Below the pieces are notes generated by a model. The model made no database searches, was not told where the DNA came from, and saw only the letters and a program-made list of their open reading frames with translations. A DNA stretch of 64,000 nt from Gemmiger formicilis (lineage in GTDB: Bacteria; Bacillota_I; Bacilli_A; RFN20; CAG-826). The position numbers and the translations under genes were made by a program. Location: contig CAVDWX010000092.1 of assembly GCA_963612735.1 (NCBI GenBank), positions 3,439 through 67,438 of the forward strand, given 5' to 3'. Shown piece by piece: positions 9,043 to 56,022 of the stretch (positions are counted from its first letter, which is position 1; each line of letters begins with the position of its first letter).

Positions 9043-10126
9043 GATTTGTTATCGCTCCTTCTATCCCATCTTCAGCTAATCTTAATTTTACAAGGTAAGG
9101 ATGACGCAAGCGTCCTCGATCGTTGTAACTCATTGCTTTTACTACAGCAAAAAGGTTTCCTTTTTTAATATCTTCAGTTGCAGAAACTAACCATTCTCTG
9201 TCTTCATCGGTTAGACCACTTGTTACTGAAGTTGTGTTTCCATCTGGCAGCTGAACCACAATGCCATTTGCCCAGCCATAATAATAAGGCTTAGTAACAG
9301 GTTCCCAGTCTGTCCATGGGTCATTTAACTCCACTGCAGATGGAGTTCTGATTACTAATTTTTTTTCTCCGCTATCAAGATAAGAGACTTCCCAATAAGA
9401 CCAATTAGAAGGATTTTGACCTTCGTATTCTCTCTTTGGTACTAAGACTCCAATTACTGGTAGCTCCATTTCTTCTAAACTTTGTTTTAATTTCAAAGTT
9501 TTCCATGCGGTACGAGTTCCTGGTAAGTAGGGGTTATCCTTACGTTGAATTACTACTCCTTCTCCACCTGCCGAAATAATTTGGTCTGCATGTTCAGCAA
9601 AGTCATTGGTAAAAATGGCAGTTGGTTTAAAGTAGTGATTAGATAGTTGTGAAAGAGCTCCTAAACGTTGCTCATATGGTGTGTTAGTTAAATCTTGATT
9701 ATTATACATTAAGACATCAAACATTAAACCATATAGCTTGTTCTCTTTTTGTCTTTCAACTGCCTTTGGTGGTAAACAACGTAAGATGGTTCCAACTGTA
9801 TTAGCATTAGTGCCGTATTCGTTCCAACAAATCTCTGCTAAGACAACAGTATTGTCTGGCCAAGTGTCCATTTCTTCAGTCAGATGAGGAAGTTTAGCAG
9901 TGTAATCTCCATATGCACCTGTGACTTTGCTGATGCTTCTACTGTGGATTAAATTATTGCCTTTAGAAAAATGAGCAAAAAGTCCAAAATCTCCATCATG
10001 CTTTTCTGTGGCTATATAAAGATTATCTTTGTTGTCAATCATAGCTTGACGTTTAAGGTTAGAATCATCTTCATTATTATAATATTTCATAATTGGCATT
10101 TCGTAGGCTATATAATGAATGTCCAT
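9023..10126 (-). CDS. ATP-dependent polynucleotide ligase (DNA or RNA ligase, nucleotidyltransferase superfamily)
   Basis: Motif I ATEKHDG (KxDG), motif IV GGEGVVIQ, motif V AWKTLKLK. Arg is absent after KxDG, so an RNA-ligase-like identity cannot be excluded. Confidence 0.6.
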   Translation of the reverse strand: MDIHYIAYEMPIMKYYNNEDDSNLKRQAMIDNKDNLYIATEKHDGDFGLFAHFSKGNNLIHSRSISKVTGAYGDYTAKLPHLTEEMDTWPDNTVVLAEICWNEYGTNANTVGTILRCLPPKAVERQKENKLYGLMFDVLMYNNQDLTNTPYEQRLGALSQLSNHYFKPTAIFTNDFAEHADQIISAGGEGVVIQRKDNPYLPGTRTAWKTLKLKQSLEEMELPVIGVLVPKREYEGQNPSNWSYWEVSYLDSGEKKLVIRTPSAVELNDPWTDWEPVTKPYYYGWANGIVVQLPDGNTTSVTSGLTDEDREWLVSATEDIKKGNLFAVVKAMSYNDRGRLRHPYLVKLRLAEDGIEGAITNHGNEEK

Positions 10127-10173
10127 AAGTGTCTCCTTTCTAAAAAAGATAAAAGATTAATTATTTATAATAT

Positions 10174-10202
10174 ATTATACTAAAAATTTTTCGATTTGTC
10201 AA
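10174..10202 (-). promoter_or_regulatory. sigma70 consensus promoter
   Basis: cttgacaaatcgaaaaatttttagtataatata on the minus strand, a perfect -35/-10 with 17-nt spacer. Confidence 0.7.
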
Positions 10203-10209
10203 GAGAATT

Positions 10210-12333
10210 TTAAAATTTTGGTTTATATCTTACTAAACGCATATTTAGACTGTCAATATCGAAAATAGTCCTGCTGTATGTAAAAACTCATAATGAGTTA
10301 TCAAAAGTTTTTGATAGTGGTATTCAACTGATAGGATTTGAAAATCCGCTATATTCTGCAATTACTACATCTTTTTGGTCATCATAATCGTCTGGTATAT
10401 CGAACTTAAAGATACATTCGGTAAGTTGATCTCCTTCTTTTTTTTCAATTCTGTCTGTTGTTCATATGTCAATATCTCAATCTTTTTGAAAATTTTTACA
10501 TATAACAGGTTTTAAATATTGTTGATCTGATTCATATTCAAGATTATGTAAGGCCGCATAAAAGAAATTCTGTGAAACATAGGATCATAGACCTATGAAA
10601 GTCTGTCCTTTTTTTTGAAAAAGAGCATTATATGGTTCTCCACCTGAAGAAACATTTGTTTCCATTTGTCCTAAATTTTCATTTCATTTAAACTTACCTG
10701 TTTGGAGTGAATCATAGGTTCAATAATTGCCTACAAAATCATTAATTGTAAAACTCTGTTTCAAACCTTTATTTAAGGTTTGCATTAGTGGACAATAATA
10801 AGGAAAGTAACCAGGTTTTAAAGGACGAATACCTGAATAAAATTTTAAATATGATTGGTATCAACCTTTGTTAGCAGGCAATCATGCATAAGCAAAGCAA
10901 TAGCTCTCTCCGTTTTTACGATATTCATCAGAATTAATATCATCTACTTGTGGTTCAAAATCTTTTTCTTGAATTTGAGTTATTTTAATAATCGGTTCTT
11001 TGACAATCGTACAAAGTAAAGTGAATTTTAAAGAATCAGTACCGTTAGATGGATTTAAAGCACCATTGCCCACTACTACATATTTTGGTGTTGGCTCTTG
11101 AGTATTTTTGTATGTAGCATAACATTTATTATCAAAATTAATAGTTAAGATACGACTTTGAGATTCTAAAATTAGTTTTGATAATAAATAGTCTCGAAGA
11201 CTTTCTTCGCCTTGTATAATATGTTGATTAAGGTTATCTCGACCATGAATAAAATTTTCAAAATTTTCTCTTGGAGAGAGTAATAAAAACTTTCAATTTA
11301 CATCACTAAAGTCTAGTTGAACTTCTAATTTATCCTGAATACCTAAATAATGTCCAAGCTGAATTTGCATAGGAGTACTCCTTTCAGTTGAAATTGTTAC
11401 TCCTGCATTATTAGAAGCACTAAATTTACCTGAGGAATTGAAAGGATCAAATCCTCTAATACATTTTCACGTTCCCGGATCATGAGAACATAACAATAAA
11501 ACATCTTGTTCAACATTAAAATCACTAGAGGTCTGAAAAATATCGGTTGTATAAGAAAATTGATCAGTAGCTTTTAATTTTAACTTATCATCTTCAATAT
11601 TTGCAGTAAAACCTTTTCAATTATCTGCATTTGGGATATCAATAGCTATTCAAACTGGAGAACTTAAATGTCAATCAGTATAATAAAGATTTTGACCTTT
11701 TGAATCTTTATCTCGAATATCACTATAAGTATTTATTTTTTGATCTTCTTTTTCTGTTTTAGTCCAATTAATTAAATTAATTGCTTTTCCTCGTATTTGC
11801 ATAGTACCTCAATTTGATCGTTCGTACAAATTAGGATACAGAATATTAGGTATATTTGTATTTTTATGATATACAGTTCGATTAGCATCGGGAGTAACGT
11901 AATTTCTAGAATATGCATTTTGTAATAAGCTTCTATTCTGCCAACGATAAGTATCTAATCATAAAGTTTTGCTAGCAAATCCTACATCATCAAAGTAATA
12001 AGTGGTACGAATGCTTCCTGATGATGAACCAACAGGCTTTAAAATAAAAACACCATCTTCTTTATACACTATTTGAACAGAACTTCCATTGGCATTTTTA
12101 AATTTTAATAATTCACAAAAGGGATCTTTTGCAGTAATTTCTATTTGGCTTCCTTGACCACTTACAACTGTGATGCTGTTATTTTTTATATCGCTATTAT
12201 CAAAATATCCTTTAAATTCAACTTTTTGAAAAGAGAATGTTTTTTGAATTAAATCAGGCAATTCTTCTTTAGTTTTATTTTCAAACAAATTAGTTGTCTG
12301 TTGATTGTCATAATAAATATACTCATCAGCCAT
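10210..12333 (-). CDS. large hypothetical protein (about 707 aa, many TGA=Trp codons)
   Basis: Single continuous frame from MADEYIYYDNQ... to ...NMRLVRYKPKF when TGA is read through. No recognisable domain. Confidence 0.5.
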
Positions 12334-12345
12334 ATAACTTACCTC

Positions 12346-13692
12346 CTAAATCCCATAAGGATTTATTTGATAGCGACGCAATAAGTCTTCCAACACTGGC
12401 CATGATATCACTAATAACCCATCACGAGCACGAGTCATCGCAACATAAGCCACATTTAAATCTTCGCTATCTTTAATTGCTGTATCAACAACTACTACAT
12501 TATCATATTCCAAACCTTTTGCTTGGTGAATAGTTGTTGTATTAATCCAACCTAATTCTTGTATACCCTTAACTTGTTTATTGGTTCTACATAAAATCAT
12601 TGGATTGGTTTGTTTTAAAAAATCGTATACTGCTTGAATTGGTTGTTGTAACATTACCACTTGGTTACCATTCACTATCTCCCAACCATTTCTAAAAGGG
12701 TCTATTACTATTACTCGACCGCCTTCTCCGCGATAACAATGAACAGATGAGTAATTACAAAAATCATGTTGTGCGATATAACAATCCCCCCATAGATTAT
12801 TATTTAATTCCTCATAAACGGTAGTAGCATAGTTAATAATTTCTTGATAGCTACGATAATTATATTTTAACTTATAAATGTCAAAGCCTTCTCCAAGTTT
12901 ATTAAATACTTCACCATCAGCCCCGCGGAATTCGTAGATAGATTGCCAACTATCTCCAATAAAGAACTTTTTCTTCGCAAGCACTTTTTCAAATATCTTG
13001 AACTGCACAGAGTCAACATCTTGAAATTCGTCAACAAAAAGAGCGTCAATAGTTGTAATATCTTCCTTGTAAGCCTCTAACATATTATATAAATATAAAG
13101 GATAATCAGTAAAATCATATAAACCATTATTTCTTTTATACATAATATAACGTTCTTCTAATGCATTTAATGTGCGGCGAAAATTATCGGTAATATCCAT
13201 TTTCTTACTACCAGTAATATAAGTATACAATATACCAATATTAACTGATTTCACACGAGCAGTACGTAAATAATTTTCTACTATAAATTCTAGTATACTT
13301 TTAATTTGATTTTCTTGAAGCACTTCTACGGCAAAATGATATTTTCTACCTAAAGCTTCAAGTAAGTTCCGACTCCAAACGTGAATAGTAGTAACCTCTA
13401 CATCAAACACGCCCATTTCTTGAAGTCGTTGTTCCATTTCAGCGCGAGCCGCACGTGTAAAAGTAATAGCACAAATGCGGTCTGCCAAGTTTTCATATCT
13501 ATAATTTGCAACGGCGGAAATTAACGACCGTGTTTTCCCCGACCCCGCGGGCGCTTTAATTAATATATTTGCTCCATCACTTTGAACTGCGGCACTTTGA
13601 CTATCATCTAACTTAGCCAAATTTTCTTGCAGATGCTGTTCAAAGTTGATGTCATTATTTCTTTTTAATGTTAGTTCTTTGTTCATCTGCAT
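12346..13692 (-). CDS. UvrD/Rep/PcrA-family DNA helicase
   Basis: Motif I APAGSGKT and motif Ia ITFTRAARAEM. Confidence 0.75.
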   Translation of the reverse strand: MQMNKELTLKRNNDINFEQHLQENLAKLDDSQSAAVQSDGANILIKAPAGSGKTRSLISAVANYRYENLADRICAITFTRAARAEMEQRLQEMGVFDVEVTTIHVWSRNLLEALGRKYHFAVEVLQENQIKSILEFIVENYLRTARVKSVNIGILYTYITGSKKMDITDNFRRTLNALEERYIMYKRNNGLYDFTDYPLYLYNMLEAYKEDITTIDALFVDEFQDVDSVQFKIFEKVLAKKKFFIGDSWQSIYEFRGADGEVFNKLGEGFDIYKLKYNYRSYQEIINYATTVYEELNNNLWGDCYIAQHDFCNYSSVHCYRGEGGRVIVIDPFRNGWEIVNGNQVVMLQQPIQAVYDFLKQTNPMILCRTNKQVKGIQELGWINTTTIHQAKGLEYDNVVVVDTAIKDSEDLNVAYVAMTRARDGLLVISWPVLEDLLRRYQINPYGI

Positions 13693-23007: not shown

Positions 23008-23034
23008 AGAGGCCATTAAGGTCTCTTTTAATTT
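23008..23034 (+). terminator. rho-independent terminator
   Basis: agaggccattaaggtctc hairpin followed by TTTTAATTT, directly after the last plus-strand fibre-block gene. Confidence 0.6.
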
Positions 23035-23127
23035 GGCAGGGGATCCAGGAGTCGAACCCGGTTCGGAGGTTTGGACGCTCCTACGATGATTTTGAAGATC
23101 ACTGGCCAGAACCGTTAGCCCAATCCC
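23034..23127 (-). tRNA. tRNA with anticodon UCA (reads UGA) and long variable arm
   Basis: Minus strand GGGGATTGG-GCTA-ACGGTTC-TGGC-CA-GTGAT-CTTCAAA-ATCAT-[GTAGGAGCGTCCAAACCTCCGAA]-CCGGG-TTCGACT-CCTGG-ATCCCT-G-CCA. The T-loop is TTCGACT, the discriminator is G, CCA is encoded, the anticodon loop is 7 nt with U33 and A37, and the variable arm is about 23 nt. Confidence 0.6.
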
Positions 23128-23162
23128 CTGTAAGGGATGAGTACCTATCGTCGCAAATTAGT

Positions 23163-38694: not shown

Positions 38695-39098
38695 TCTAGT
38701 ACTTCGCCATCTATTTCTTCCCTAAAAGCACACCAAACATCTTCTTCTAAAAAATCACGAATTGCAGGGATTAAGTTAAAAGTAGGTCTTGTCGCTGTAA
38801 AGCGAATATCTTCTACTTGTACATCTACTAATGGTGCTATACCTCGATTTACTCTGATTTCATTAATATCATTAAGACGACCATTATTTTCCCAAATATT
38901 TACTAAATCTTCTTCAGTAAAGAAAGGAATCGATGCACCTTCTTCTACTGGGCGAAAAGTTTTTTGTAAAAATTCATTAAATTTTTCAATATACTCAGCA
39001 TTAAGCTCCATAACATTAATATACTCTACACGTTCAACAGAACGAATTACTAATTGTCTACTCACAATTAATTTCCTCCTTATTTCTTCCAAGGCCAT
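38652..39098 (-). CDS. hypothetical acidic protein immediately downstream of the sigma factor gene
   Basis: 148-aa ORF ending EEEEEPWQ. Its start overlaps the sigma gene stop. Confidence 0.45.
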   Translation of the reverse strand: MALEEIRRKLIVSRQLVIRSVERVEYINVMELNAEYIEKFNEFLQKTFRPVEEGASIPFFTEEDLVNIWENNGRLNDINEIRVNRGIAPLVDVQVEDIRFTATRPTFNLIPAIRDFLEEDVWCAFREEIDGEVLDWEFGMEEEEEPWQ

Positions 39099-39919
39099 GC
39101 TGCCTTTAATTTTTGTAAACTTGCTTTTTCGATTTGTCTAACTCTTTCACGAGTTAAGTTTAATTCAGCTCCAACTTCATCTAAAGTATGAGTTTTTGTC
39201 CAATTAATTGGGTCACCATTTTCAACCTTACCTAAACCCATACGCATTTTAATTACTATTTGTTCACGTGGTTTTAAAACGGTCTTAATTAAATCTTGAA
39301 TTACTTCTTCTTTTTCCTTACGAACTGCAAAATGTTCAGGTGTTTCGCTTCTTGTGTCTGCTTGTAAGTCACTTAAAGTGTCACCATCATCTCCTAATGG
39401 TGTTTCAAGACTTACAGTGTCATAGCGCCAACCTTCCAAGTCAGCAACCTTTTCTACATCGATGCCCATAACTTCTGCGATACGAGCAGGTGTGGCTTTT
39501 CCACCCTTACTTTCTAATTCAGCAATAGTTGCTCTATACTTGTTCAACATTTGATAAATATGAGCGGGAATACGGATAGTTTTTCCGCAATCAGTGATTG
39601 CTTTAGTAATGGCTTGACGAATCCAAGGAGTCGCACAAGTTGAGAAACGATAACCTAAGTCTGGATTGTATTTTTCAACCGCAGTGATTAAACCTAAATT
39701 TCCTTCAGCGATTAAGTCTAACTTTTCCATATGACTGTTTTGATAATTATTTGCAATTGATACAACCAATCTTAAGTTACTATTGATTAATTGTTCTTTC
39801 GCAGCGTGAGCAACTTCAGGGTCTTCGCTTCTCATTTTGTATGCTAATTCTCTTTCTTCATCTGCACTTAATAATTGATATTCACCAATTTCTTTCATAT
39901 ATTTATTTAATGCTGTCAT
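39080..39919 (-). CDS. phage-encoded sigma-70 family RNA polymerase sigma factor
   Basis: Region 2 (LRLVVSIANNYQN...DLIAEGNLGLITAVEKY), region 3 and region 4 (TLDEVGAELNLTRERVRQIEKASLQKLK). Confidence 0.8.
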   Translation of the reverse strand: MTALNKYMKEIGEYQLLSADEERELAYKMRSEDPEVAHAAKEQLINSNLRLVVSIANNYQNSHMEKLDLIAEGNLGLITAVEKYNPDLGYRFSTCATPWIRQAITKAITDCGKTIRIPAHIYQMLNKYRATIAELESKGGKATPARIAEVMGIDVEKVADLEGWRYDTVSLETPLGDDGDTLSDLQADTRSETPEHFAVRKEKEEVIQDLIKTVLKPREQIVIKMRMGLGKVENGDPINWTKTHTLDEVGAELNLTRERVRQIEKASLQKLKAAWPWKK

Positions 39920-44293: not shown

Positions 44294-44785
44294 TTATTCA
44301 GCATCACGTGCGGCTAAGGCATAAGTACCAACCTTTTTCTTAACTGTACAAGGCACTTCAACTTCACCAGCCACGGTTACATTTCCTTTTGTAACTAAGC
44401 CATTGACGTTTCCGCTGATAAGTGGCTTGCCAACTAATTCACTAAGTTGAGCTAGTGTAAGCGGCTCTGCGGCGTCCTTTAATGCAACTAGAATGCTTTT
44501 TTCGGCATCTGTGTAATTGCATACTTTGCCAGTTGCAGGATTAGTTTGAACGGCATCAGTGACTAGTTGATACACTTTATTTGAACGCTTAGAAGCGACT
44601 TCCGCTGCCACTTGTCCGGCGTTGTAAATAAGTCCACGCTTAATTAAACCAGAGATGTGACCGGGAGTGATAGCTACGCCGGCACGTTCGTTTAATTCAG
44701 CAATAGTAAGCGGTCTATCAGATGCGGCCAAAACTTCTAATACGGCCTTTGCAGATTCAGTTAATGGTGTTAAATTTTTACTCAT
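44294..44785 (-). CDS. tandem double winged-helix DNA-binding protein (paralog family member)
   Basis: Two repeats: PLTIAELNERAGVAITPGHISGLIKRGLIYN and PLTLAQLSELVGKPLISGNVNGLVTKGNVTV. Confidence 0.5.
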   Translation of the reverse strand: MSKNLTPLTESAKAVLEVLAASDRPLTIAELNERAGVAITPGHISGLIKRGLIYNAGQVAAEVASKRSNKVYQLVTDAVQTNPATGKVCNYTDAEKSILVALKDAAEPLTLAQLSELVGKPLISGNVNGLVTKGNVTVAGEVEVPCTVKKKVGTYALAARDAE

Positions 44786-45212: not shown

Positions 45213-45290
45213 TGAATCCTATGACAACATAAATTTTAAATCAACATAAATTTTAAATCAACATAAATTTTAAATCAACATAAATTTTAA
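45213..45290. repeat. 17-bp tandem direct repeat x4.5 (aacataaattttaaatc)
   Basis: catgtgaatcctatgacAACATAAATTTTAAATCAACATAAATTTTAAATCAACATAAATTTTAAATCAACATAAATTTTAAATCCacg. Confidence 0.85.
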
Positions 45291-45685
45291 ATCCACGTAG
45301 GCCTATAACTTTGTTGCTGCTGCTCAACTTTATGAAAACGTTTTCATTGCCCTATGCTGAATGTAGATAGCATAAGTACTATTAACTAGCCCGAGTACCA
45401 TTGCCAAGCAACCTTTGGAATGTTACTTCTACATCTGCAAAAAGTGAGCAAATGGCTTGACAAGATGTGGAAAATGTGCTATAATATTATTATAGCTGCT
45501 GCTGCTAATAAGTATCACACTGACCTAGGCACCACAAGTTTGCGGCGCCCCGCCCTCTCCGGCGTCCGGGCATATTTTGTAAACGCTTTCATTTTAATGT
45601 AAACGCTTTCATCGTATGCTTTAATTATGAAAACGTTTTCATAACCATCCTTCCGTCTGCCTCTTACATATGTGCAAAAAGAGAC

Positions 45686-45976
45686 TTATTCAGTCTCTTT
45701 CACTAATGTATATGCCTTAACAGTATTAGTCTTTTCGCCGATTTTGACACCTTTAAAATATACATCGCATACTATTTTGGTGTCTTCAGATATTACTAAA
45801 CCACGCTTTACTAAGGCAGTTACCACGCCACTAGCATATCTAATGCCAGTATCTACTTCAATTTCCATTAAAGTAACAGGATAATTATATCCCTCTAAGA
45901 CAGTTAAGAACGCTTTTTGATTGTCATTTGGTTTCCATACTTTTTCATTTTTGTTTACATTTATTGTTTTCATCAT
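45686..45976 (-). CDS. small winged-helix DNA-binding protein (paralog family member; candidate regulator flanked by palindromic sites)
   Basis: NQKAFLTVLEGYNYPVTLMEIEVDTGIRYASGVVTALVKRGLVI closely parallels 48292..48594. Confidence 0.55.
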   Translation of the reverse strand: MMKTINVNKNEKVWKPNDNQKAFLTVLEGYNYPVTLMEIEVDTGIRYASGVVTALVKRGLVISEDTKIVCDVYFKGVKIGEKTNTVKAYTLVKETE

Positions 45977-46016
45977 TTTAAATTACCTTTTACCTTTCTT
46001 TTTTATTTACACTAAT

Positions 46017-46045
46017 ATTATATCATAGTTTGGTGGCAAAGTCAA
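46017..46045 (-). promoter_or_regulatory. sigma70 promoter (TTGACT-17-TATAAT), class B (-10 context tgaTATAATatta)
   Basis: cttgactttgccaccaaactatgatataatatt on the minus strand. Confidence 0.6.
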
Positions 46046-46552
46046 GAAAAATGTTCTAAAATTTTTATTTTCTTTTTTTCATAAAATTCCTTTTCCTATC
46101 ACCTAACTACAATAATATTATACCACAAAAAGCTCAACTTGTCAACCCATAAACTTATGAAAACGTTTTCCTATCTTTAAGACTTGCTATTCTTGCTGCT
46201 GTAAAAAAATGAAAGCGCTTTCATCTTGCTGCTGCTGCTTTTTCATAAAATGAAAACGTTTTCACGCCGTCGCCACGCGGGCGCGGCATATATATCAAAA
46301 ATTTATGGCTTTATGGTTATATGTATATACATATTTATGTATTGGACATCCGATTTTTGCGTCGAAAAAGGCAGACGGAAGTGAAAAAATCTCCTAAAAC
46401 ATATTAAATTTTAGGAGAAAACGTGAAAAAAGTAAGCGAAAACGTGCAGTTTTAAGTAAAAATGTTGCTGCTGCTGCTTCAAAAATGTTAAAAAGGTGGG
46501 AGAAAGGGGAGGGATAGGAGGGGAAAGGCAGACGGAAGTGGCGAGCAAATTG

Positions 46553-46581
46553 GTTGACAAAGGGAAAGAAAGGGTGTATAA
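46553..46581 (+). promoter_or_regulatory. plus-strand sigma70 consensus promoter inside the control region (antisense to early genes)
   Basis: TTGACAaagggaaagaaagggtgTATAAT with GGCAGACGGAAGTGG 13 nt upstream. A second TTGACA follows at 46601. Confidence 0.5.
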
Positions 46582-46639
46582 TGGCAGACGGAAATGGCAC
46601 TTGACAAAACGGAAATTTCCGTCTACGCAGACGGAAAGG

Positions 46640-46668
46640 GTAAAATAAAAAAGGTCCACTAGGGACCT
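46640..46668 (-). terminator. rho-independent terminator
   Basis: Minus strand ggtccctagtggacc followed by TTTTTTATTTTACC. Confidence 0.6.
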
Positions 46669-46858
46669 GAACCTGTCACGTAGGTATCTTACGACCCGTT
46701 CTTAAGGCAAATGTAGTTTTAGCCAATTATCTTTATTAAGGCAAACAATTAAACCCGATTTATTTTGGTGAAATCTTCCCCTATTTTTGAACGATGAATA
46801 GTAACGTTTGTCCTTTTGTTGAGGATTGGACGTAGCCCCAACCTTTAATTATATTAAT

Positions 46859-46887
46859 ATTATATCATATTTATTTAACTTTGTCAA
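46859..46887 (-). promoter_or_regulatory. class B sigma70 promoter with upstream CAGACGGAAG element; no ORF before the terminator at 46640 (about 200-nt noncoding transcript)
   Basis: cttgacaaagttaaataaatatgatataatatt on the minus strand, with aatcagacggaagtaaac 16 nt upstream of the -35. Confidence 0.55.
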
Positions 46888-46914
46888 GAGAAAGATTGTT
46901 TACTTCCGTCTGAT

Positions 46915-47382
46915 TTATTTTTCTATCATACCAAAATATTTTTCTTGAGTCCAACCATTCCAACCGAATGTCAACAAATATTTTCGATAATGTCTATAAT
47001 TACTATATTCATAACTTTCAGTTTGATAAGAAGAGCCATTACGTATTAAACCATTACATTTCCAACCTAATTCTTTTAGAGTATTTTCAATTTGATTTGG
47101 GGAATATTTGTTATCAAGCTCTATGAAGCCATCAAGTTTTTCTTTGGCTTGATTAATTTTTGTTTGAATATATTCTTTTAAATCTTCTTCCATTATTTCT
47201 TTTTCACATTCAGCAAGTAAAATTAAAGCTCTGTTTTTGGCAATTTCCATTCCTATTAATTCATTAAACTTATCTTGTGGACTACATACAGCAATACCCT
47301 TTAATTCGCATTTGCCTACTTTAATAGTAGCAACAACCTTTCTTTCTTCTTTTAAAATTTGATAACTAATTTGTTTTTCCAT
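46915..47382 (-). CDS. hypothetical protein (155 aa)
   Basis: Intact ORF. Confidence 0.45.
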   Translation of the reverse strand: MEKQISYQILKEERKVVATIKVGKCELKGIAVCSPQDKFNELIGMEIAKNRALILLAECEKEIMEEDLKEYIQTKINQAKEKLDGFIELDNKYSPNQIENTLKELGWKCNGLIRNGSSYQTESYEYSNYRHYRKYLLTFGWNGWTQEKYFGMIEK

Positions 47383-47419
47383 TTTTCTAACCTACCTTTT
47401 CTTTTTTATTTACATTAAT

Positions 47420-47448
47420 ATTATATCATATTTTAATATTCTTGTCAA
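47420..47448 (-). promoter_or_regulatory. class B sigma70 promoter with upstream CAGACGGACAAGG element
   Basis: cttgacaagaatattaaaatatgatataatattaa on the minus strand. Confidence 0.6.
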
Positions 47449-47480
47449 GTATTTTAACTACCTTGTCCGTCTGAGACCGC

Positions 47481-48251
47481 TTACCCTTTATAGGTAATAC
47501 GGTCACCACGAACGAATGATTTCTTATAATCAAACTCTACAACATTTCCGTCTGGCAATACTATCACTTGGTGGAACACTTTTTCAGATGCAACTCTTTT
47601 TGCCTTCGGTAATGCTCTAGTTATGTCGGCGTTTCTTCTAATGCATTCTAATAATATTTCCGTCTCCCATTGCACATCACTTAATGCGGTGTGGTCTTCT
47701 TCAAACTCTTTATTATTAAATAAGTATCTTACTACGCTCTCAACTGTGCTACTAATATAAAAGCCCGTTGCGGTGAACTCTTCCGTCTGAGTCGCCCACT
47801 CTTTATATTCCTTTGTATTAATAATAAATTCATATGCATACGCCCAAATATCAAATATTGGTAGTCCTTCTAAAGGGTTTGCAATCCCTAATCCGTCTGC
47901 TGTGCGTTTGAATTTGTCAACATCAAAGTCACAGTTATATGCATAGCCAAATAATACATTATATTTTTTAATATCGTTTGTCATAGTAGTAAATACTTGC
48001 TTGATATTTCTTAATGTTATCATTCCGTCTGCCACCAACTTATCATACTTGGTTAGTTTGTTTGCACCTACAAAATCATCATTAAGCATATAAATACGAT
48101 TATTATATAAATCTCTTACCAAATAATCTCTAGCCACTAGTACTTTTCCGTCTGCATGTTGAATATTTATATCAACGATTTTATAACCCACATTTAATAA
48201 GTCTTGACTAACTTTTCCAACTGTTTCAGTATCAAATATTATTACGTTCAT
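47481..48251 (-). CDS. DnaQ-like DEDDh 3'-5' exonuclease
   Basis: Exo I VIIFDTETVGK and Exo III HTALSDVQ. Contains seven co-oriented GCAGACGG-type motif copies at about 100-130 bp spacing, mostly as Ala-Asp-Gly codons. Confidence 0.7.
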   Translation of the reverse strand: MNVIIFDTETVGKVSQDLLNVGYKIVDINIQHADGKVLVARDYLVRDLYNNRIYMLNDDFVGANKLTKYDKLVADGMITLRNIKQVFTTMTNDIKKYNVLFGYAYNCDFDVDKFKRTADGLGIANPLEGLPIFDIWAYAYEFIINTKEYKEWATQTEEFTATGFYISSTVESVVRYLFNNKEFEEDHTALSDVQWETEILLECIRRNADITRALPKAKRVASEKVFHQVIVLPDGNVVEFDYKKSFVRGDRITYKG

Positions 48252-48291
48252 AGTCTTCTCTCCGTCTGCCCGCTTGGGGTTGGGTGCCGAT

Positions 48292-48594
48292 TTACTCGGC
48301 TACCCTTTCAAGATTTGCTAAACTATATTTTTTTACGTGGTCGGTTTTGTGTCCGATAATTGTATCACGATAAACGATATTACTAATTCGGTCAACTTCC
48401 GTTGCTACAATAAGACCACGACCCATTAAAGCGGTCATTACACCAGTTGCAACTTTTACGCCAGTATCAATTTCGATATCTATTAGCATTGCTCCGTCTG
48501 GGTAATTCTTTAGAATTTCTAAAACTTTTGCTTGATTTTCGTTTGGGGCCCATTCCTTTTTAGTTGTTGTTGTTTTTTTGATTTCTTTTGCCAT
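48292..48594 (-). CDS. small winged-helix DNA-binding protein (paralog family member)
   Basis: NQAKVLEILKNYPDGAMLIDIEIDTGVKVATGVMTALMGRGLIV. Confidence 0.55.
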   Translation of the reverse strand: MAKEIKKTTTTKKEWAPNENQAKVLEILKNYPDGAMLIDIEIDTGVKVATGVMTALMGRGLIVATEVDRISNIVYRDTIIGHKTDHVKKYSLANLERVAE

Positions 48595-48599
48595 AATTT

Positions 48600-49215
48600 T
48601 TTACCTACCTTTACTTAAATTTTTTAATGGCTTGGCTACCATTTACATAAATATTATATCATATTTACGTTTATATGTCAAGGGCTTTTGCTTATCTTTT
48701 CCGTCTGCCAATTTTCTTACTTGGCATACCATTGATTAAGTTTATTACCACTTTACACCTAATATTATACATCTTTTAAAGCCATTTGTCAAGGCTTTTA
48801 CTTCCCTTTTCCGTCTGCCGGTCAAGGTTGGTATAGGTGGTTTTTGTTTCGGGATGACCACCAACCCCATATTTATTTTACACTAATATTATATCACATT
48901 TATTTATTTTTGTCAAGCGTTTTATTTTTGCTTTCCGTCTGCCGCCTTTGTGGCTGCTAAACCTTTCTTTTATATAAATATTATATCATAAATAAATTAA
49001 TATGTCAAGCACTTAACTTATCGGCGTCCGTCTGCCTTTGGGTTTAGGCCATTGTGATGTCTATTTAACTCTTGCACTAATATTATACACCTTTTGCATT
49101 TGAAAGTCAAGCAATAAAACTTGCCATTTCCGTCTGCTTCTCTTCTCTTCCGTCTGCGGTAGACGGATAACAAGGCCAACATTTTTTCTTTCCGTCTACC
49201 CTTTTCGGGCGAAGG
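48600..49215 (-). repeat. tandem array of five roughly 105-bp promoter units, each [GCAGACGGAA element]-N13-16-[TTGACA]-N17-[tgaTATAATatta]
   Basis: -10/-35 pairs at 48652..48680, 48764..48792, 48888..48916, 48980..49008 and 49082..49110, each preceded by ggcagacgga(a/c). No ORF separates the units. Three more motif copies in both orientations at 49128-49200. Confidence 0.7.
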
Positions 49216-49218
49216 GGT

Positions 49219-49491
49219 TTATTCCCCTTCTTCATCGTCTTCTAAGCATTCGTCCCAAAAGTCATCTTCGTCATCGTCGTCATCTTCATACCAAGCGTGG
49301 CTTCCGTCTGCTTCGATGTCTTCTGCTTCGGCAATACTTAGAAAACCTTCATAATCGTCTTCAAAACTTGATAATGCTCTCGTTTCAATTTCTTCAACAC
49401 TCATACTTTCTAGTCTTTCGCCGTCTTCTAATTCAATGACAACACTTCCGTCTAATGTAATTTTTAATGGAACTCTTACTAATTTACTCAT
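49219..49491 (-). CDS. hyper-acidic small protein (candidate DNA mimic)
   Basis: 90 aa, ends YEDDDDDEDDFWDECLEDDEEGE. About 40 percent D/E overall. Confidence 0.45.
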   Translation of the reverse strand: MSKLVRVPLKITLDGSVVIELEDGERLESMSVEEIETRALSSFEDDYEGFLSIAEAEDIEADGSHAWYEDDDDDEDDFWDECLEDDEEGE

Positions 49492-49530
49492 AATTTTTTA
49501 CCTACCTTTTCTTTTTTTATTTACACTAAT

Positions 49531-49560
49531 ATTATATCATACTTACATATCACTTGTCAA
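49531..49560 (-). promoter_or_regulatory. class B sigma70 promoter with upstream GGCAGACGGGAAA element
   Basis: cttgacaagtgatatgtaagtatgatataatatta on the minus strand. Confidence 0.6.
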
Positions 49561-49588
49561 GCCTTACGCTTTGTTTTTTCCCGTCTGC

Positions 49589-49804
49589 CTAGTTTTGCCA
49601 TTCACCTTCTAAATCAAAGTATAAACTGCCCAACCATTCACCATTAAGACTATATATTCTTAATTCTTGACCTATTGAAAATCTTTTTACATCATATTCA
49701 ACATCAAGTCTTTTTAATTGTTCTTGAATTTTTTCTAAATCAGTCATTCTCTTTTTCTCCTTTCCGTCTGCTAAGCAAACCATAATATAAACACGTTTAA
49801 GCAT
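49589..49804 (-). CDS. hypothetical small protein
   Basis: Intact 71-aa ORF. Confidence 0.35.
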   Translation of the reverse strand: MLKRVYIMVCLADGKEKKRMTDLEKIQEQLKRLDVEYDVKRFSIGQELRIYSLNGEWLGSLYFDLEGEWQN

Positions 49805-50025
49805 ATTCCCGCTAAATGCATAGCAATTCCATTTATATGCCTATCAGTTGCAAAGTCTTTAATTAACCCTAAACTTGCAATAACTAAACCAAACACCGCA
49901 CCAACATTAAACCCCACAAACACAATCAAACCTACATTAATTAGTTGTAAAATGGCTCTAATATCGTTCATTTCAAACTTGTATCTTTGTTCTATCTTAA
50001 AAAATCTTTTTACCAACTCTTTCAT
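49771..50025 (-). CDS. small two-TM membrane protein
   Basis: LIVFVGFNVGAVFGLVIASLGLI and LAGICLNVFILWFA hydrophobic segments. Confidence 0.4.
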   Translation of the reverse strand: MKELVKRFFKIEQRYKFEMNDIRAILQLINVGLIVFVGFNVGAVFGLVIASLGLIKDFATDRHINGIAMHLAGICLNVFILWFA

Positions 50026-50069
50026 AATTTAGTCCTTTCCGTCTGCCGGTGGTAGTGATAGGTCAGTGC

Positions 50070-50585
50070 CTACCACTCAAACCATCCGTCTGGGTATATT
50101 TCCCCTATATGTTCTATAAGTGGCTTTACTATTTTTATGCTTTTACCTTTGCCACTTGCTATCCATTCCCTACAATTTTTGCCGTAATCATCTAATAATA
50201 TGCCTCCTTTAGTTTTTGCATAATCGGCTTTATTTTTACCAACTCTCATTATTATGATATGGCTTTTTTTAATTTGTGGATAGTGATATTTTAGCCATTC
50301 CCTTTTATCCCTATCCGCTTGTTTATTGGGGCTTGCGGATAGAATATATAAATTTATATATGGGCTTTTTAATAGACTTTCAAAGCCTTCTTGATTAATT
50401 GGTTTAAGTTTTTTAAAGAAGCCTTTTTCAGTTTTAAAGCGTTCAAGTGCATTAATTTGTCCACCAAAGTCAGCAATAACGCCATCCATATCGCAATATA
50501 CATTTATTTTTAAACCCTTATAAAGGCTTTTTAAGTTTCTTTCTTTAACTAGTTTCTTATATTGTTTAGTCAATTTTTTATTCAT
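50070..50585 (-). CDS. 5'(3')-deoxyribonucleotidase (NT5C-like HAD phosphatase)
   Basis: HAD motif I CDMDGVIADF identical in pattern to the NT5C family DMDGVLADF. Confidence 0.65.
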   Translation of the reverse strand: MNKKLTKQYKKLVKERNLKSLYKGLKINVYCDMDGVIADFGGQINALERFKTEKGFFKKLKPINQEGFESLLKSPYINLYILSASPNKQADRDKREWLKYHYPQIKKSHIIIMRVGKNKADYAKTKGGILLDDYGKNCREWIASGKGKSIKIVKPLIEHIGEIYPDGWFEW

Positions 50586-51412: not shown

Positions 51413-51479
51413 ATACCACAAATAAAATAATAAGTCAATAGAAAAACAAAAAATCTTTTATGAAAACGTTTTCATTTTA

Positions 51480-54213: not shown

Positions 54214-56022
54214 ATGCTAGACGATTTAAACTTTTATGATGAAGATTATATGGAACCTGAAATAGCCGACCTAATAGAATTCTTTGATAATGAAGAGAGA
54301 CAAACTACTAATACCTTAACTAAAAAGCGCATTGATGAACATTTTCAAGAGGTGGGCAGATACTTAAATGAGTTTATGATATATCCTGATTTATTTGTTG
54401 ATTTACTTGTGCCGAAGCGTAGTCACTTCACATTATATCCATTTCAACGTATAATGATGAGATGCATGGCTCGTGGAACTGCAACTTATGAAACTTTATC
54501 ACGTGGTACCTCTAAATCATTTATTGCCGATTTGGAGCGCTACCTCCACTGTATGTTCGTTCCACGTCACAATACAACAATTACCGCCGGAACAATCAAA
54601 CAGGCAGCAGAAATTGCCAAGCAAAAATTCGTTAATGACTTATGGGTAAAATTCCCTCTTCTTGGTAACGAGATGCAACGTCGTGTAGTAGCCGGTAAAA
54701 AGATGGACCCGTTTTCAGTGCAAAAAGATTATGTATCATTTACTTTTAAAAACGGTTCGTCAATTTCATTAGGTAATGTCCGTGGTCTACGTCGTCAATC
54801 ATTAATCTTTGAAGAAGTTATTGAACAAGACGAAACCCTTGTAAATGAAGTTTATATTCCTATGTTAAATGAACCTCGTAAAATGAGTAATGGTTTAATA
54901 AATCCATACGAACCACAATCTCAAGAAATTTATATTACTACTGCGGGATACCAGCAGACGTTTGCATATCAAAAGCTTATTGAAATATTATGTCGTTCAG
55001 TTATGGATCCAAATAACTATTATGTTATCTGTGGAACTTATCGTATTCCATTATACCACGGTTTAACTGCGAAGAAAAAAATTGAGGACGTTATTAATTC
55101 TCCTTCATTTAGTAAATCTTCATTTGAACGTGAATATGAAAGTAGATGGAGTGACGCACCAGCTGGCGCGGCATTTAATGTTAATATGATCAGCGCATTG
55201 CGTCAAGTAAAGTTGACTGAATTAAAGAATAAATTAACTACCACTCAATTAAGTGACGGTTGCTTTTATGTCATCTGCGCCGATATGGCGAAAGATGGTG
55301 CGGCCGAAACGGCAGTCGGGGTAGCAAAAGTAATTCCAAAGGAACACTTTTTTACTTACAAATTTGTTAACCTATTTAGTATTACTTCAACTGACTACAT
55401 GGTTATTGCAAATGAATTTAAGAAAACCGTTCTACTCTATAACGCCAAACTTCTTATATACGATGCCAATGGTATCGGTGCAGCAATGCGAGATTGGTTG
55501 AATAAAGAAACTCGTGATGATAAAGGTATGATTTATGAGGGATTAGGAATTATTAATCCACCAACAGATGCCGAAAAAGATTTAATTGCATATCCTAAAG
55601 AGAAAACCATCTGTTATGAAATTAAGTCAGGTGGAACAATTGGAGAACAAATTCATTACTTCTTCTTCTCACGTATGAGTACCGGGGCTATTACTTACCC
55701 ACTTAAACTTACAGATGCAATTGCATTATATGGACGTAATAAAGGTTTCATGGATATGAGCATGCGCAAACAAAAAGAAGTTTTAGCACCATTCCAAGTA
55801 ATGGATAAAATGGAACAACAACTTAAAAACTTAGATATTCTAAACACATCTGACACAATGACCAACCGTTTAAAAATTGTTCGTCGTAATGCAAAAATTC
55901 AAAAGGACTATTTTTCTATGGCAGAGTATTTAGTATGAGCGGTTAATAAACAATTTGAATTAGAATATTACAAACGTAAACGACAAAAAGGCAAAGGTCG
56001 TAAAATTGCCTTCTTCGACTAA
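54214..56022 (+). CDS. terminase large subunit
   Basis: About 602 aa after TGA read-through. Has an ATPase-like N-domain (YPFQRIMMRCMARGTATYETLSRGTSKSF) and a nuclease-like C-terminal half. Located before the portal. Confidence 0.65.

Follow-up and report, generated by a model that had tools for sequence, protein, structure and literature searches.

The early region and its promoter stack

The stretch analysed here, referred to as the window, comprises 64,000 nucleotides (64 kb) of contig CAVDWX010000092.1; its GC content is about 33%, and it represents a segment of a phage genome. The genes of the early region are on the - strand and run leftward from just left of the packaging genes to a non-coding hub at 45.2-46.7 kb. 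This region contains a stack of five promoter units, each with a copy of a motif 10-11 nt in length. The stack stands before a gene for a small predicted winged-helix protein (wHTH1). Relatives, designated as L-numbered loci, were recovered from IMG/VR, ENA, Logan and GTDB metagenome-assembled genome (MAG) contigs; L109 is a MAG labelled Bacillota and L138 a MAG labelled Ruminococcus. The central features are the following:

48653..49137, - strand: promoter stack of five head-to-tail units, A to E
Unit A, - strand: motif 49137-49128; -35 49110-49105 (TTGACT); -10 49087-49082
Unit B, - strand: motif 49035-49026; -35 49008-49003; -10 48985-48980
Unit C, - strand: motif 48942-48933; -35 48916-48911; -10 48893-48888
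Unit D, - strand: motif 48818-48809; -35 48792-48787; -10 48769-48764
Unit E, - strand: motif 48708-48699; -35 48681-48676; -10 48658-48653
48292..48594, - strand: wHTH1, predicted 100-aa winged-helix protein, fed by the stack; ribosome binding site (RBS) 48612-48603
47481..48251, - strand: DEDD-type exonuclease gene (256 aa, phrog_20187) with six in-frame motif copies
46904..50094, - strand: motif array, 24 copies of the core AGACGG, across gene junctions, promoters and open reading frames (ORFs)

In each unit GCAGACGGA(A/C) is followed by an A-rich linker of 16-17 nt, TTGAC(A/T), 17 nt, TATAAT, a ATTAGTGTAAA-like start region and 30-60 nt of filler. The first-pass annotation of this locus had the elements and their order right, but gave the linker as 13-16 nt. 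Successive -35 hexamers are 102, 92, 124 and 111 bp apart, and the five sites score 11-12 out of 12 against the consensus. Downstream of unit E the stack ends, as had been annotated, at the RBS AAAGGTAGGT (48612-48603), from which eight nucleotides lead to the ATG of wHTH1 at 48594. In the whole window there are 28 TTGAC(A/T)-N17-TATAAT sites, compared with 0.09-0.11 expected, and 19 exact copies of GCAGACGGA (0.12 expected), 18 of which fall within 45.6-50.1 kb. Judged by the match to consensus and by the conservation described below, all five units are predicted to be active promoters.

The units had been described as having no genes between them. All five were found on the - strand, and the ORFs of 41-54 aa listed within the stack are not retained in relatives; the stack contains no conserved ORF or start codon. 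No terminator-like hairpins were seen within or between units, and the filler holds nothing conserved that could define short abortive or pause transcripts. The filler of unit C can be folded into a hairpin whose stem differs between the window and its relatives by one compensatory change (GGTGG/CCACC versus GGCGG/CCGCC), and a search of 45.2-49.3 kb for known RNA families gave no Rfam match.

Conservation and recurrence of the stack

The units have one-to-one orthologues, each with unit-specific features, in L001 (about 89% nucleotide identity to the window) and in L028, L029 and L030 (70-74% identity of the winged-helix protein). Between the window and L028, identity was 94% in the motif, 97% in the -35 and 100% in the -10 hexamers, 83% in the first 12 nt after the -10, 71% in linkers and spacers and 61% in the filler, a further 12% of which was gapped. 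The neutral reference, 4-fold degenerate sites of the adjacent exonuclease gene, was 70% identical. The earlier impression that the units diverge in spacer sequence and are conserved in their elements was correct. The comparison indicates that purifying selection keeps the motif, the -35 and the -10 in place, whereas the filler drifts at roughly the neutral rate.

The number of promoters before wHTH1 is five in the window, L028, L029, L034, L109 and L138; L033 has three, L096 has two and L027 a single one. Five-promoter stacks before the same gene family recur in three divergent lineages. L034, whose exonuclease and winged-helix protein are only 57% and about 26% identical to those of the window, has its five promoters at a pitch of 129, 120, 106 and 108 bp, and L109 at 96, 120, 119 and 98 bp; the minimum over all stacks is 92 bp. 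As judged by reading (unaligned for L034), the filler in L034, L109 and L138 has no obvious similarity to that of the window. A scan of nine loci for gene-less runs of at least two consensus promoters found them before the winged-helix family in every lineage that has the family; the only remaining runs were two-promoter runs in L031 and L036, which lack the family, before other small proteins.

A paralogue of wHTH1 has a stack of its own:

45686-45976: wHTH2, paralogue of wHTH1, 40% identical
46017..46145, - strand: second stack feeding wHTH2, two promoters with -35 at 46145 and 46045, without the motif

Every lineage with wHTH2 has such a stack, of two to four promoters: the window, L001, L027, L028, L029, L034 and L133, of which L027, L028, L029, L133 and L034 have three or four; it carries a different upstream repeat and no GACGGA motif. 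The elements of the stack are thus present and conserved, and their arrangement recurs. This pattern favours selection for promoter number before a gene needed fast and in quantity. That the stacks recur and are tied to winged-helix genes argues against debris, small RNAs and iterons. Among the options offered by the first-pass annotation, that of an extreme promoter stack is the one supported by the selection on hexamers and motif and by the recurrence of stacks in divergent lineages.

A motif repeated across the early region

The motif had been taken for a feature of the stack, and its extension through the neighbouring genes had been missed. Thirty-one of the 39 AGACGG cores in the window fall within 45.3-50.2 kb. 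At promoters the motif GGCAGACGGAA (10-11 nt) occupies about -62 to -52. Its distance to the -35 is 16-18 nt for each of the nine class-1 promoters of the window and 15 nt for those of L034, L109 and L138; across lineages the distance is fixed at 15-18 nt, and the motif follows promoter direction on both strands. Away from promoters, three genes that lack a promoter of their own have a copy over or next to their Shine-Dalgarno sequence (at 48269, 49771 and 50046; the copy over that of the exonuclease gene is 48269-48261), and in L001 the motif lies directly after or overlaps stop codons. Thirteen of the 23 gaps between successive - strand cores measure 90-135 bp, compared with 15% expected, a share reached in none of 20,000 simulations.

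Other copies mark the edges of the stack and of the array:

49148..49168: palindromic motif pair ATCCGTCT-ACCGC-AGACGGAA at the upstream edge of the stack, with a further copy at 49199-49191
46370..46637, + strand: four motif copies, one of them 16 nt upstream of a convergent class-1 consensus promoter (46554-46582)
46616-46637: palindrome TTTCCGTCT-ACGC-AGACGGAAA, formed by the last + strand copy, marking the array end

The three copies upstream of the stack do alternate in orientation as first described: 49157-49149 (-), 49159-49167 (+, GTAGACGGA) and 49199-49191 (-, GTAGACGGA). At the other end, the orientation of the array flips at the palindrome 46616-46637, which adjoins the hub, and the same flip is seen in L034; the + strand copies and the convergent promoter are also found in L028, L029 and L034. 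Sense copies outnumber antisense copies by 77 to 6 in L034 and by 24 to 5 in the array of the window. A + strand transcript from the 46554 promoter would start in a motif copy and contain the motif palindrome, and in L034 an inverted motif pair followed by a T-run forms a terminator that ends the early array.

More distant lineages carry variants of the motif. In L031 and L032 it reads (T)NGGACGGA(T/C), with GGACGGA(T/C) as the L031 variant, and copies of either orientation cluster in intergenic regions; three direct copies are spaced at 20 bp, the last of them 17 nt before the -35. In L036 and L037 each intergenic region has a single palindrome, TGGTAGTCT-N5-AGACTACCA, placed some 75 bp before the -35. 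In L027 the array is missing and only one promoter stands before wHTH1, but the hub palindrome is kept. An operator for a dimer-capable double-stranded-DNA binder that co-evolves with its sites would fit three observations: the palindromes, the spacing at two helical turns and the constant distance from the -35.

A bolder reading, which we hold less likely than not, is that a clade of uncultured Clostridia-type phages tags all of its immediate-early DNA with a 10-11 nt word that differs by lineage (AGACGGA-type, GGACGGA-type or AGACTACCA palindromes). The word would stand at every early promoter and gene junction and, in some lineages, about every 100 bp of sense-strand coding sequence, at positions long maintained in evolution and strongly enough to fix Ala-Asp-Gly in unrelated early proteins; together the copies would form a region-wide cis code read by an abundant factor made from the stack. 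Such a word could serve to shut off or silence early genes globally, or to handle in a directional manner the DNA that enters first.

In 8-kb MAG loci with single pattern hits the motif was at chance level. A literature search for it returned only primer coincidences. The 7-mer CCGTCTG is common to the motif and the Neisseria DNA uptake sequence; the likeness was judged coincidental because the context here is low-GC Clostridial.

Motif copies inside genes

Inside genes the motif recurs at intervals of about 100-120 bp. The six copies in the exonuclease gene lie at offsets 98, 221, 353, 463, 586 and 698, use two reading frames and encode ADG (three times), QTE, ETE and PDG. They are at identical positions in four genomes, and third-codon positions are invariant at 21 of 24 sites inside the motif versus 142 of 233 elsewhere (p = 0.013). 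The positions are shared by the window, L033 and L034, five of the six being kept in L034 despite 57% protein identity. In the exonuclease homologues of L031 (61% identical) and L036 (52% identical), two genomes with other motifs, unrelated residues are found at these positions; for example, QKGTYT or ATATYA replaces QHADGK, and ALEQKQ replaces LVADGM. In L034, with about 76-77 sense-strand copies in 7 kb, 51 copies are coding, and 46 of these are in the frame xCA-GAC-GGA. The comparisons strongly indicate that selection acts on the in-gene copies at the nucleotide level, so that a DNA word appears to shape the proteins by imposing Ala-Asp-Gly. An origin as a protein repeat was rejected, given that two reading frames are in use and that the series of copies carries on into non-coding DNA. 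Reading the sequence revealed no internal promoters to go with the in-gene copies.

An NT5C-type 5'-deoxyribonucleotidase (50070-50585) is a shared early gene alongside the exonuclease (47481-48251). The pairing recalls the T5 pre-early breakdown of host DNA and disposal of dNMPs.

The winged-helix proteins and the candidate binder

The AlphaFold2 model of the stack-fed product (pLDDT 78.7) has three helices and a long beta-hairpin, and on this basis wHTH1 is predicted to be a winged-helix protein. The best Foldseek matches were ScpB, MarR/ZitR, RTP and TFE, with weak E-values, and a profile of the family gave nothing significant against PDB sequences. The gene itself contains one internal motif variant (CCAGACGGA, 48501-48493). 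A third member lies nearby:

44294-44785: double-domain winged-helix relative, with weak IclR/MarR helix-turn-helix matches

Array size tracks stack size loosely. Counted as AGACGG/AGACGGA copies and stacked promoters, respectively, the values are 6 and 1 in L027, 24 (sense strand) and 3 in L033, 34 and 2 in L096, 31 and 5 in the window, 58 and 5 in L138, 59 and 5 in L109 and 77 and 5 in L034. With 30-77 sites per genome copy to fill, a binder must be abundant, which would explain the stack before wHTH1 and makes wHTH1 a candidate; that it binds the motif and regulates its own gene is, at this point, speculative. A search for the binder by shared gene content singled out no such protein: within the fetched loci, the exonuclease and the 5'-nucleotidase alone are common to the window, L034, L031 and L036, and a profile search detected no winged-helix gene in L031 or L036.

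Cassette exchange in the early region

Single class-1 cassettes precede individual small genes:

49531..49588, - strand: single class-1 cassette (GCAGACGGGA, 18 nt, TTGACA, 18 nt, TATAAT) driving a gene for a 90-aa acidic protein (49219-49491)
47420..47474, - strand: single class-1 cassette before the gene of a 155-aa protein (46915-47382)

The first cassette and the acidic gene lie directly upstream of the stack. The C-terminal half of the 90-aa protein (- strand) is extremely acidic (DDDDDEDDFWDECLEDDEEGE), and its gene holds two motif copies; it could be a DNA mimic or an anti-restriction protein. A second promoter class, of about 15 copies on the - strand (4882-45053 and 52951), reads aaaatttttc-TTGACA-aa.cg..aaaaatttag-TATAAT; its spacer is conserved, the GACGGA motif is missing, and the promoters stand before replication and middle genes.

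The window and L001 differ by three cassette changes within 4 kb, with junctions inside repeated modules. L001 has a cassette with a promoter and a 42-aa ORF between units B and C, flanked on both sides by GGCAGACGGAAAG; two extra small-gene cassettes before the acidic gene make up another difference; the third is a promoter with a 72-aa gene after the exonuclease, where the window has a hybrid promoter (in the cassette 47420..47474) with the crossover in the -10 region of the repeated promoter. The repeated motif-promoter modules would thus serve as recombination points at which small-gene cassettes are added or removed.

Proposed role of the stack and alternative explanations

The reading that we favour, with moderate confidence, is that the stack is a sigma-A-type immediate-early multi-promoter amplifier for an abundant DNA-binding protein, set in an operator-tagged, cassette-shuffling early region. 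After infection, the host sigma-A polymerase would fire from all class-1 promoters, and the five gene-less ones would multiply initiation just ahead of wHTH1 and the exonuclease gene behind it. Since there are no terminators between the cassettes, transcription would accumulate downstream, and since the promoters are already of consensus type, output could be raised further only by more promoters in series. The pitch of about 92-129 bp would be roughly the closest packing of RNA polymerase-promoter complexes without overlap. A phage factor that recognizes the motif, probably as double-stranded DNA, would then act jointly on all tagged promoters. Our likeliest guess for its action would be shut-off of immediate-early transcription, by analogy with phi29 p4/p6, SPO1 TF1 and SPbeta MrpR with its SPBRE element; that wHTH1 would be this factor is a speculative step.

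Several points weigh against this reading. Promoter firing, additive output and binding of the motif by a DNA-binding protein are steps that we infer, and tandem strong promoters can interfere with each other, in which case output need not add up. A site centred near -57 is unusual for simple repression. The gaps between motif copies, around 115 bp, are not multiples of 10.5 bp and so lack helical phasing, and in L034 the spacing is broad (40-140 bp); no specific nucleoprotein geometry is therefore implied. Even by profile search, no winged-helix homologue was found in the 16.7-kb loci of L031 and L036, and the presence of motif arrays without the family in these two, L031 sharing the GACGGA core, weakens the case for wHTH1 as the binder. 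The only genes common to the window, L034, L031 and L036 within the fetched loci encode the exonuclease and the NT5C 5'-deoxyribonucleotidase. Finally, the sense-strand bias and the Shine-Dalgarno overlap also fit a role at the RNA level.

It is on account of the last point that an RNA-level role stays the main rival, although we think it rather unlikely. The motif would then be a recognition sequence on immediate-early transcripts for a phage or host factor, such as an endoribonuclease or a translational repressor that inactivates them, and the units of the stack would still be promoters, with the signal present on their read-through transcripts too. T4 RegB inactivates early mRNAs at GGAG. 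Besides the strand bias of the arrays in L034 and the window and the copies at the Shine-Dalgarno sequences of the three promoter-less genes, the copies after or over stop codons in L001 are as expected for an RNA signal, and inverted pairs would form RNA hairpins, as in the terminator that ends the L034 array. In contrast, the distance of 15-18 nt between motif and -35, kept across lineages, points to a role on DNA at the promoter. In L031 the motif occurs in both orientations, its promoter-proximal copies being antisense, 20 bp apart and just upstream of the -35, and in L036 the single palindrome per intergenic region is upstream of the promoter. Cleavage sites every 115 nt in essential early ORFs would also be costly.

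The gene-less units could alternatively be leftovers of cassette shuffling, promoters that have lost their small genes and are tolerated rather than selected. This would suit a hyperplastic region with three cassette indels relative to the 89%-identical L001 and junctions in repeated modules, the 42-aa ORF cassette that L001 has between units B and C, the RBS-like AAAGGTT that unit B retains without an ORF, and the neutral evolution of the filler. We nevertheless consider it improbable: recombination between promoter copies deletes promoters and does not create gene-less ones, the hexamers have all been kept perfect, and five-promoter stacks stand before the same family in three divergent lineages with different filler, with a second stack before the paralogue. 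Moreover, in lineages with the family, gene-less runs occur only before winged-helix genes, the two-promoter runs before small proteins being those of L031 and L036.

Somewhat more doubtful still is that the motif array is a directional DNA signal for a translocase or nuclease, like Chi for AddAB or KOPS/SRS for FtsK/SpoIIIE, that protects or steers the first-entering or end-proximal DNA, with transcription from the stack perhaps helping to pull DNA into the cell. Transcription-driven DNA entry has reportedly been proposed for T7 A1-A3. The array is dense, co-oriented and local, flips at the palindrome by the hub in the window and likewise in L034, and varies between lineages as expected if hosts differ; the 5'-deoxyribonucleotidase and exonuclease also recall the T5 pre-early region. 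Against this, the motif keeps a constant distance to promoters and always points the way the nearby promoter does, the L031 and L036 motifs are bidirectional or palindromic and only intergenic, and the 8-kb MAG loci with single hits are at chance level. Furthermore, the motif of 10-11 nt is longer than the known Firmicutes Chi sequences.

The suggestion that the units are origin iterons disguised as promoters did not find support. Transcription-activated origins with tandem promoters exist (the T7 primary origin, lambda ori), and the repeat is regularly spaced, but a transcription-activated origin is very improbable here: iterons are 17-22 nt long at about two helical turns, whereas this motif has 10-11 nt at a pitch of 92-124 bp, is spread over about 4 kb including coding sequence and is locked to the -35 outside the stack as well, neither an AT-rich unwinding element nor an initiator gene was seen next to the stack, and there is no GC-skew turn at 48-49 kb. 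A 17-bp perfect tandem repeat (CAACATAAATTTTAAAT, 4.1 copies) at 45225-45293, in the hub, is iteron-like and a better candidate for origin iterons or a packaging site than the stack; comparable 16-bp arrays occur in L027, one of them at the end of its contig.

Just as improbable is that each unit encodes a small RNA or micro-peptide, as the unit C hairpin and the conserved first 10-20 nt after the -10 might suggest, since the filler, at 61% identity with indels, is at or below the neutral reference and in L034, L109 and L138 is not obviously similar on reading, and the units show no terminators between them, no conserved ORF or start codon and no Rfam match. A role as RNA polymerase sink was dismissed by reasoning only, five extra promoters per infecting genome being unable to titrate the host polymerase.

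Comparison with known systems

The left end of T7 carries three strong E. coli RNA polymerase promoters (A1, A2 and A3), about 125 bp apart and without genes between them; A2c/A2b of phi29 and P1/P2 of rrn operons are smaller cases of tandem promoters. Like A1-A3, the stack consists of co-oriented promoters of host-polymerase type at a pitch of about 100-130 bp, is gene-less and heads early genes. It differs in having five promoters, all at or one base from perfect consensus, each with a lineage-specific 10-11 nt motif at about -57; in lying inside the early region, with more promoters and genes upstream (at 49560 and 52951); and in its association with the winged-helix family, with two stacks per genome. 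In a P100-like Listeria phage, two tandem transcription starts precede the first terminal-repeat gene (PMC12282133).

The PeSLs of T4-type phages are mobile regulatory cassettes whose defining element is a stem-loop terminator (PMC2839356, PMC4122927). As with PeSLs, consensus early promoters with AT-rich upstream sequence stand between small ORFan genes of a hyperplastic region in the window, and indel junctions between the window and L001 are inside the modules. Unlike PeSLs, the modules of the window have no stem-loop terminator or insulation and carry a single asymmetric motif instead, which also occurs inside ORFs; gene-less runs of modules do not figure in the PeSL description consulted. 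Only two motif palindromes occur in the approximately 4 kb of the window's early region, and L036 has one per cassette.

In SPbeta, the 15-bp element SPBRE is present at about ten promoters, all controlled by the phage repressor MrpR, which binds it (PMC10516654). The motif of the window is similarly repeated and consistently placed relative to the class-1 promoters. SPbeta is a temperate phage with about ten such promoters, whereas here 30-77 copies of a 10-11 nt motif are found, coding sequence included, with a strand bias.

Abundant small DNA-binding proteins bind arrays of sites around strong early promoters and switch these off in phi29 (p4/p6 at A2c/A2b) and SPO1 (TF1), and upstream-bound p4 represses by holding the polymerase via the alpha C-terminal domain. 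Such polymerase holding would suit a site at about -57. The proteins of the window have no sequence or fold relationship to p4, p6 or TF1; the sites of p6 and TF1 are degenerate, whereas the motif is sharp at 10-11 nt, and phi29 and SPO1 are not known to have sites at conserved ORF positions, unlike the window.

Tandem early promoters, promoter-based mobile cassettes and repeated operators are thus already known. New are five promoters of perfect type before one gene family, twice per genome and in several lineages, and for the region-wide lineage-specific word at conserved coding positions we found no known counterpart; if confirmed, it would be a previously undescribed kind of cis code. Phages may in this way exceed a perfect promoter by multiplying it, multiplicity being a conserved trait of one family and not debris, and Gram-positive or Clostridial expression systems could draw on the stack as a tunable promoter amplifier of natural origin. 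The array offers a clear case of a non-coding DNA signal imposed on coding sequence, visible at 57% protein identity. The system of early-gene control or DNA handling can be tested with a synthetic fragment of 700 bp and one or two small proteins, and PeSL-like cassette shuffling would extend to Firmicute siphophages.

The phage, its host and its relatives

The window derives from an uncultured large siphophage. Its host is probably a gut or rumen Clostridium-class bacterium, because about 40 of the 51 pattern hits in a scan of genome contigs (L093-L143) were in gut or rumen Clostridia MAGs (Oscillospiraceae, Ruminococcus, Lachnospiraceae). Three contigs were true relatives (L096, L109/L133 and L138), each with arrays, winged-helix genes and stacks. 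In IMG/VR pattern scans the sole relative was L001/L051; the other hits had one match each, with at most two motif copies, and were chance-like.

No close DNA relatives of the window were found among 50,697 phage records, and tblastn of the winged-helix protein against phage records gave no match. In isolated phages the exonuclease matched with only 25-34% identity, the long matches (27-29%) being to Enterococcus phages and Phass-1; Enterococcus phage VRE9_2 has neither motif arrays nor promoter stacks. In all, 337 homologues of the exonuclease were found at E <= 1e-5. Searches of the neighbouring proteins against Pfam and PHROG were informative only for NT5C and phrog_20187, the latter of unknown function; four PHROGs, also of unknown function, matched the 155-aa protein weakly, and a 267-aa protein had one marginal match.

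The large terminase subunit (54214-55938) is 33% identical to that of Geobacillus virus E3, its other matches being large Firmicutes siphophages. The window also encodes a portal protein, helicase, ligase, topoisomerase and three to four tRNAs, and, at distant similarity, SPbeta-type structural proteins (YonB-, YonD- and YonF-like). ARAGORN called a tRNA-SeC at 23034-23129 (- strand), for which the Rfam tRNA model gave no confirmation at the gathering threshold; the call may be false, or the tRNA aberrant. One further regulatory gene was found:

39080-39919, - strand: full-length sigma-70-family factor with Pfam regions 1.2, 2, 3 and 4

Its homologue in L034 sits within the motif array.

The non-coding hub

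The palindrome (A)TGAAAACGTTTTCA(T) or TGAAAGCGCTTTCA occurs at least seven times in the hub (45300-46270 of the window) and again at about 51470, upstream of a promoter at 51438; L027 has a similar stretch (9874-13116). These palindromes fit the consensus of CcpA cre or LacI-family operators. At the corresponding place in L034 (10700-10950), TTGTGAAATTTTTCACAA is found instead, which fits the Rex-box consensus. The phage may borrow or titrate metabolic regulators of the host.

At 46645-46887 (- strand) a consensus promoter (46887-46859) leads into some 200 nt free of ORFs, after which comes an intrinsic terminator (46668-46652), an arrangement conserved in L001 and possibly representing a non-coding RNA; the candidate transcript had no Rfam match and folds no better than shuffled sequences (z = +0.59). 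Runs of GCTGCTGCTGC (CAGCAG repeats) are spread across the hub at 45315, 45497, 46190, 46225 and 46466, and the hub of L034 has similar runs of GCAGCAGC.

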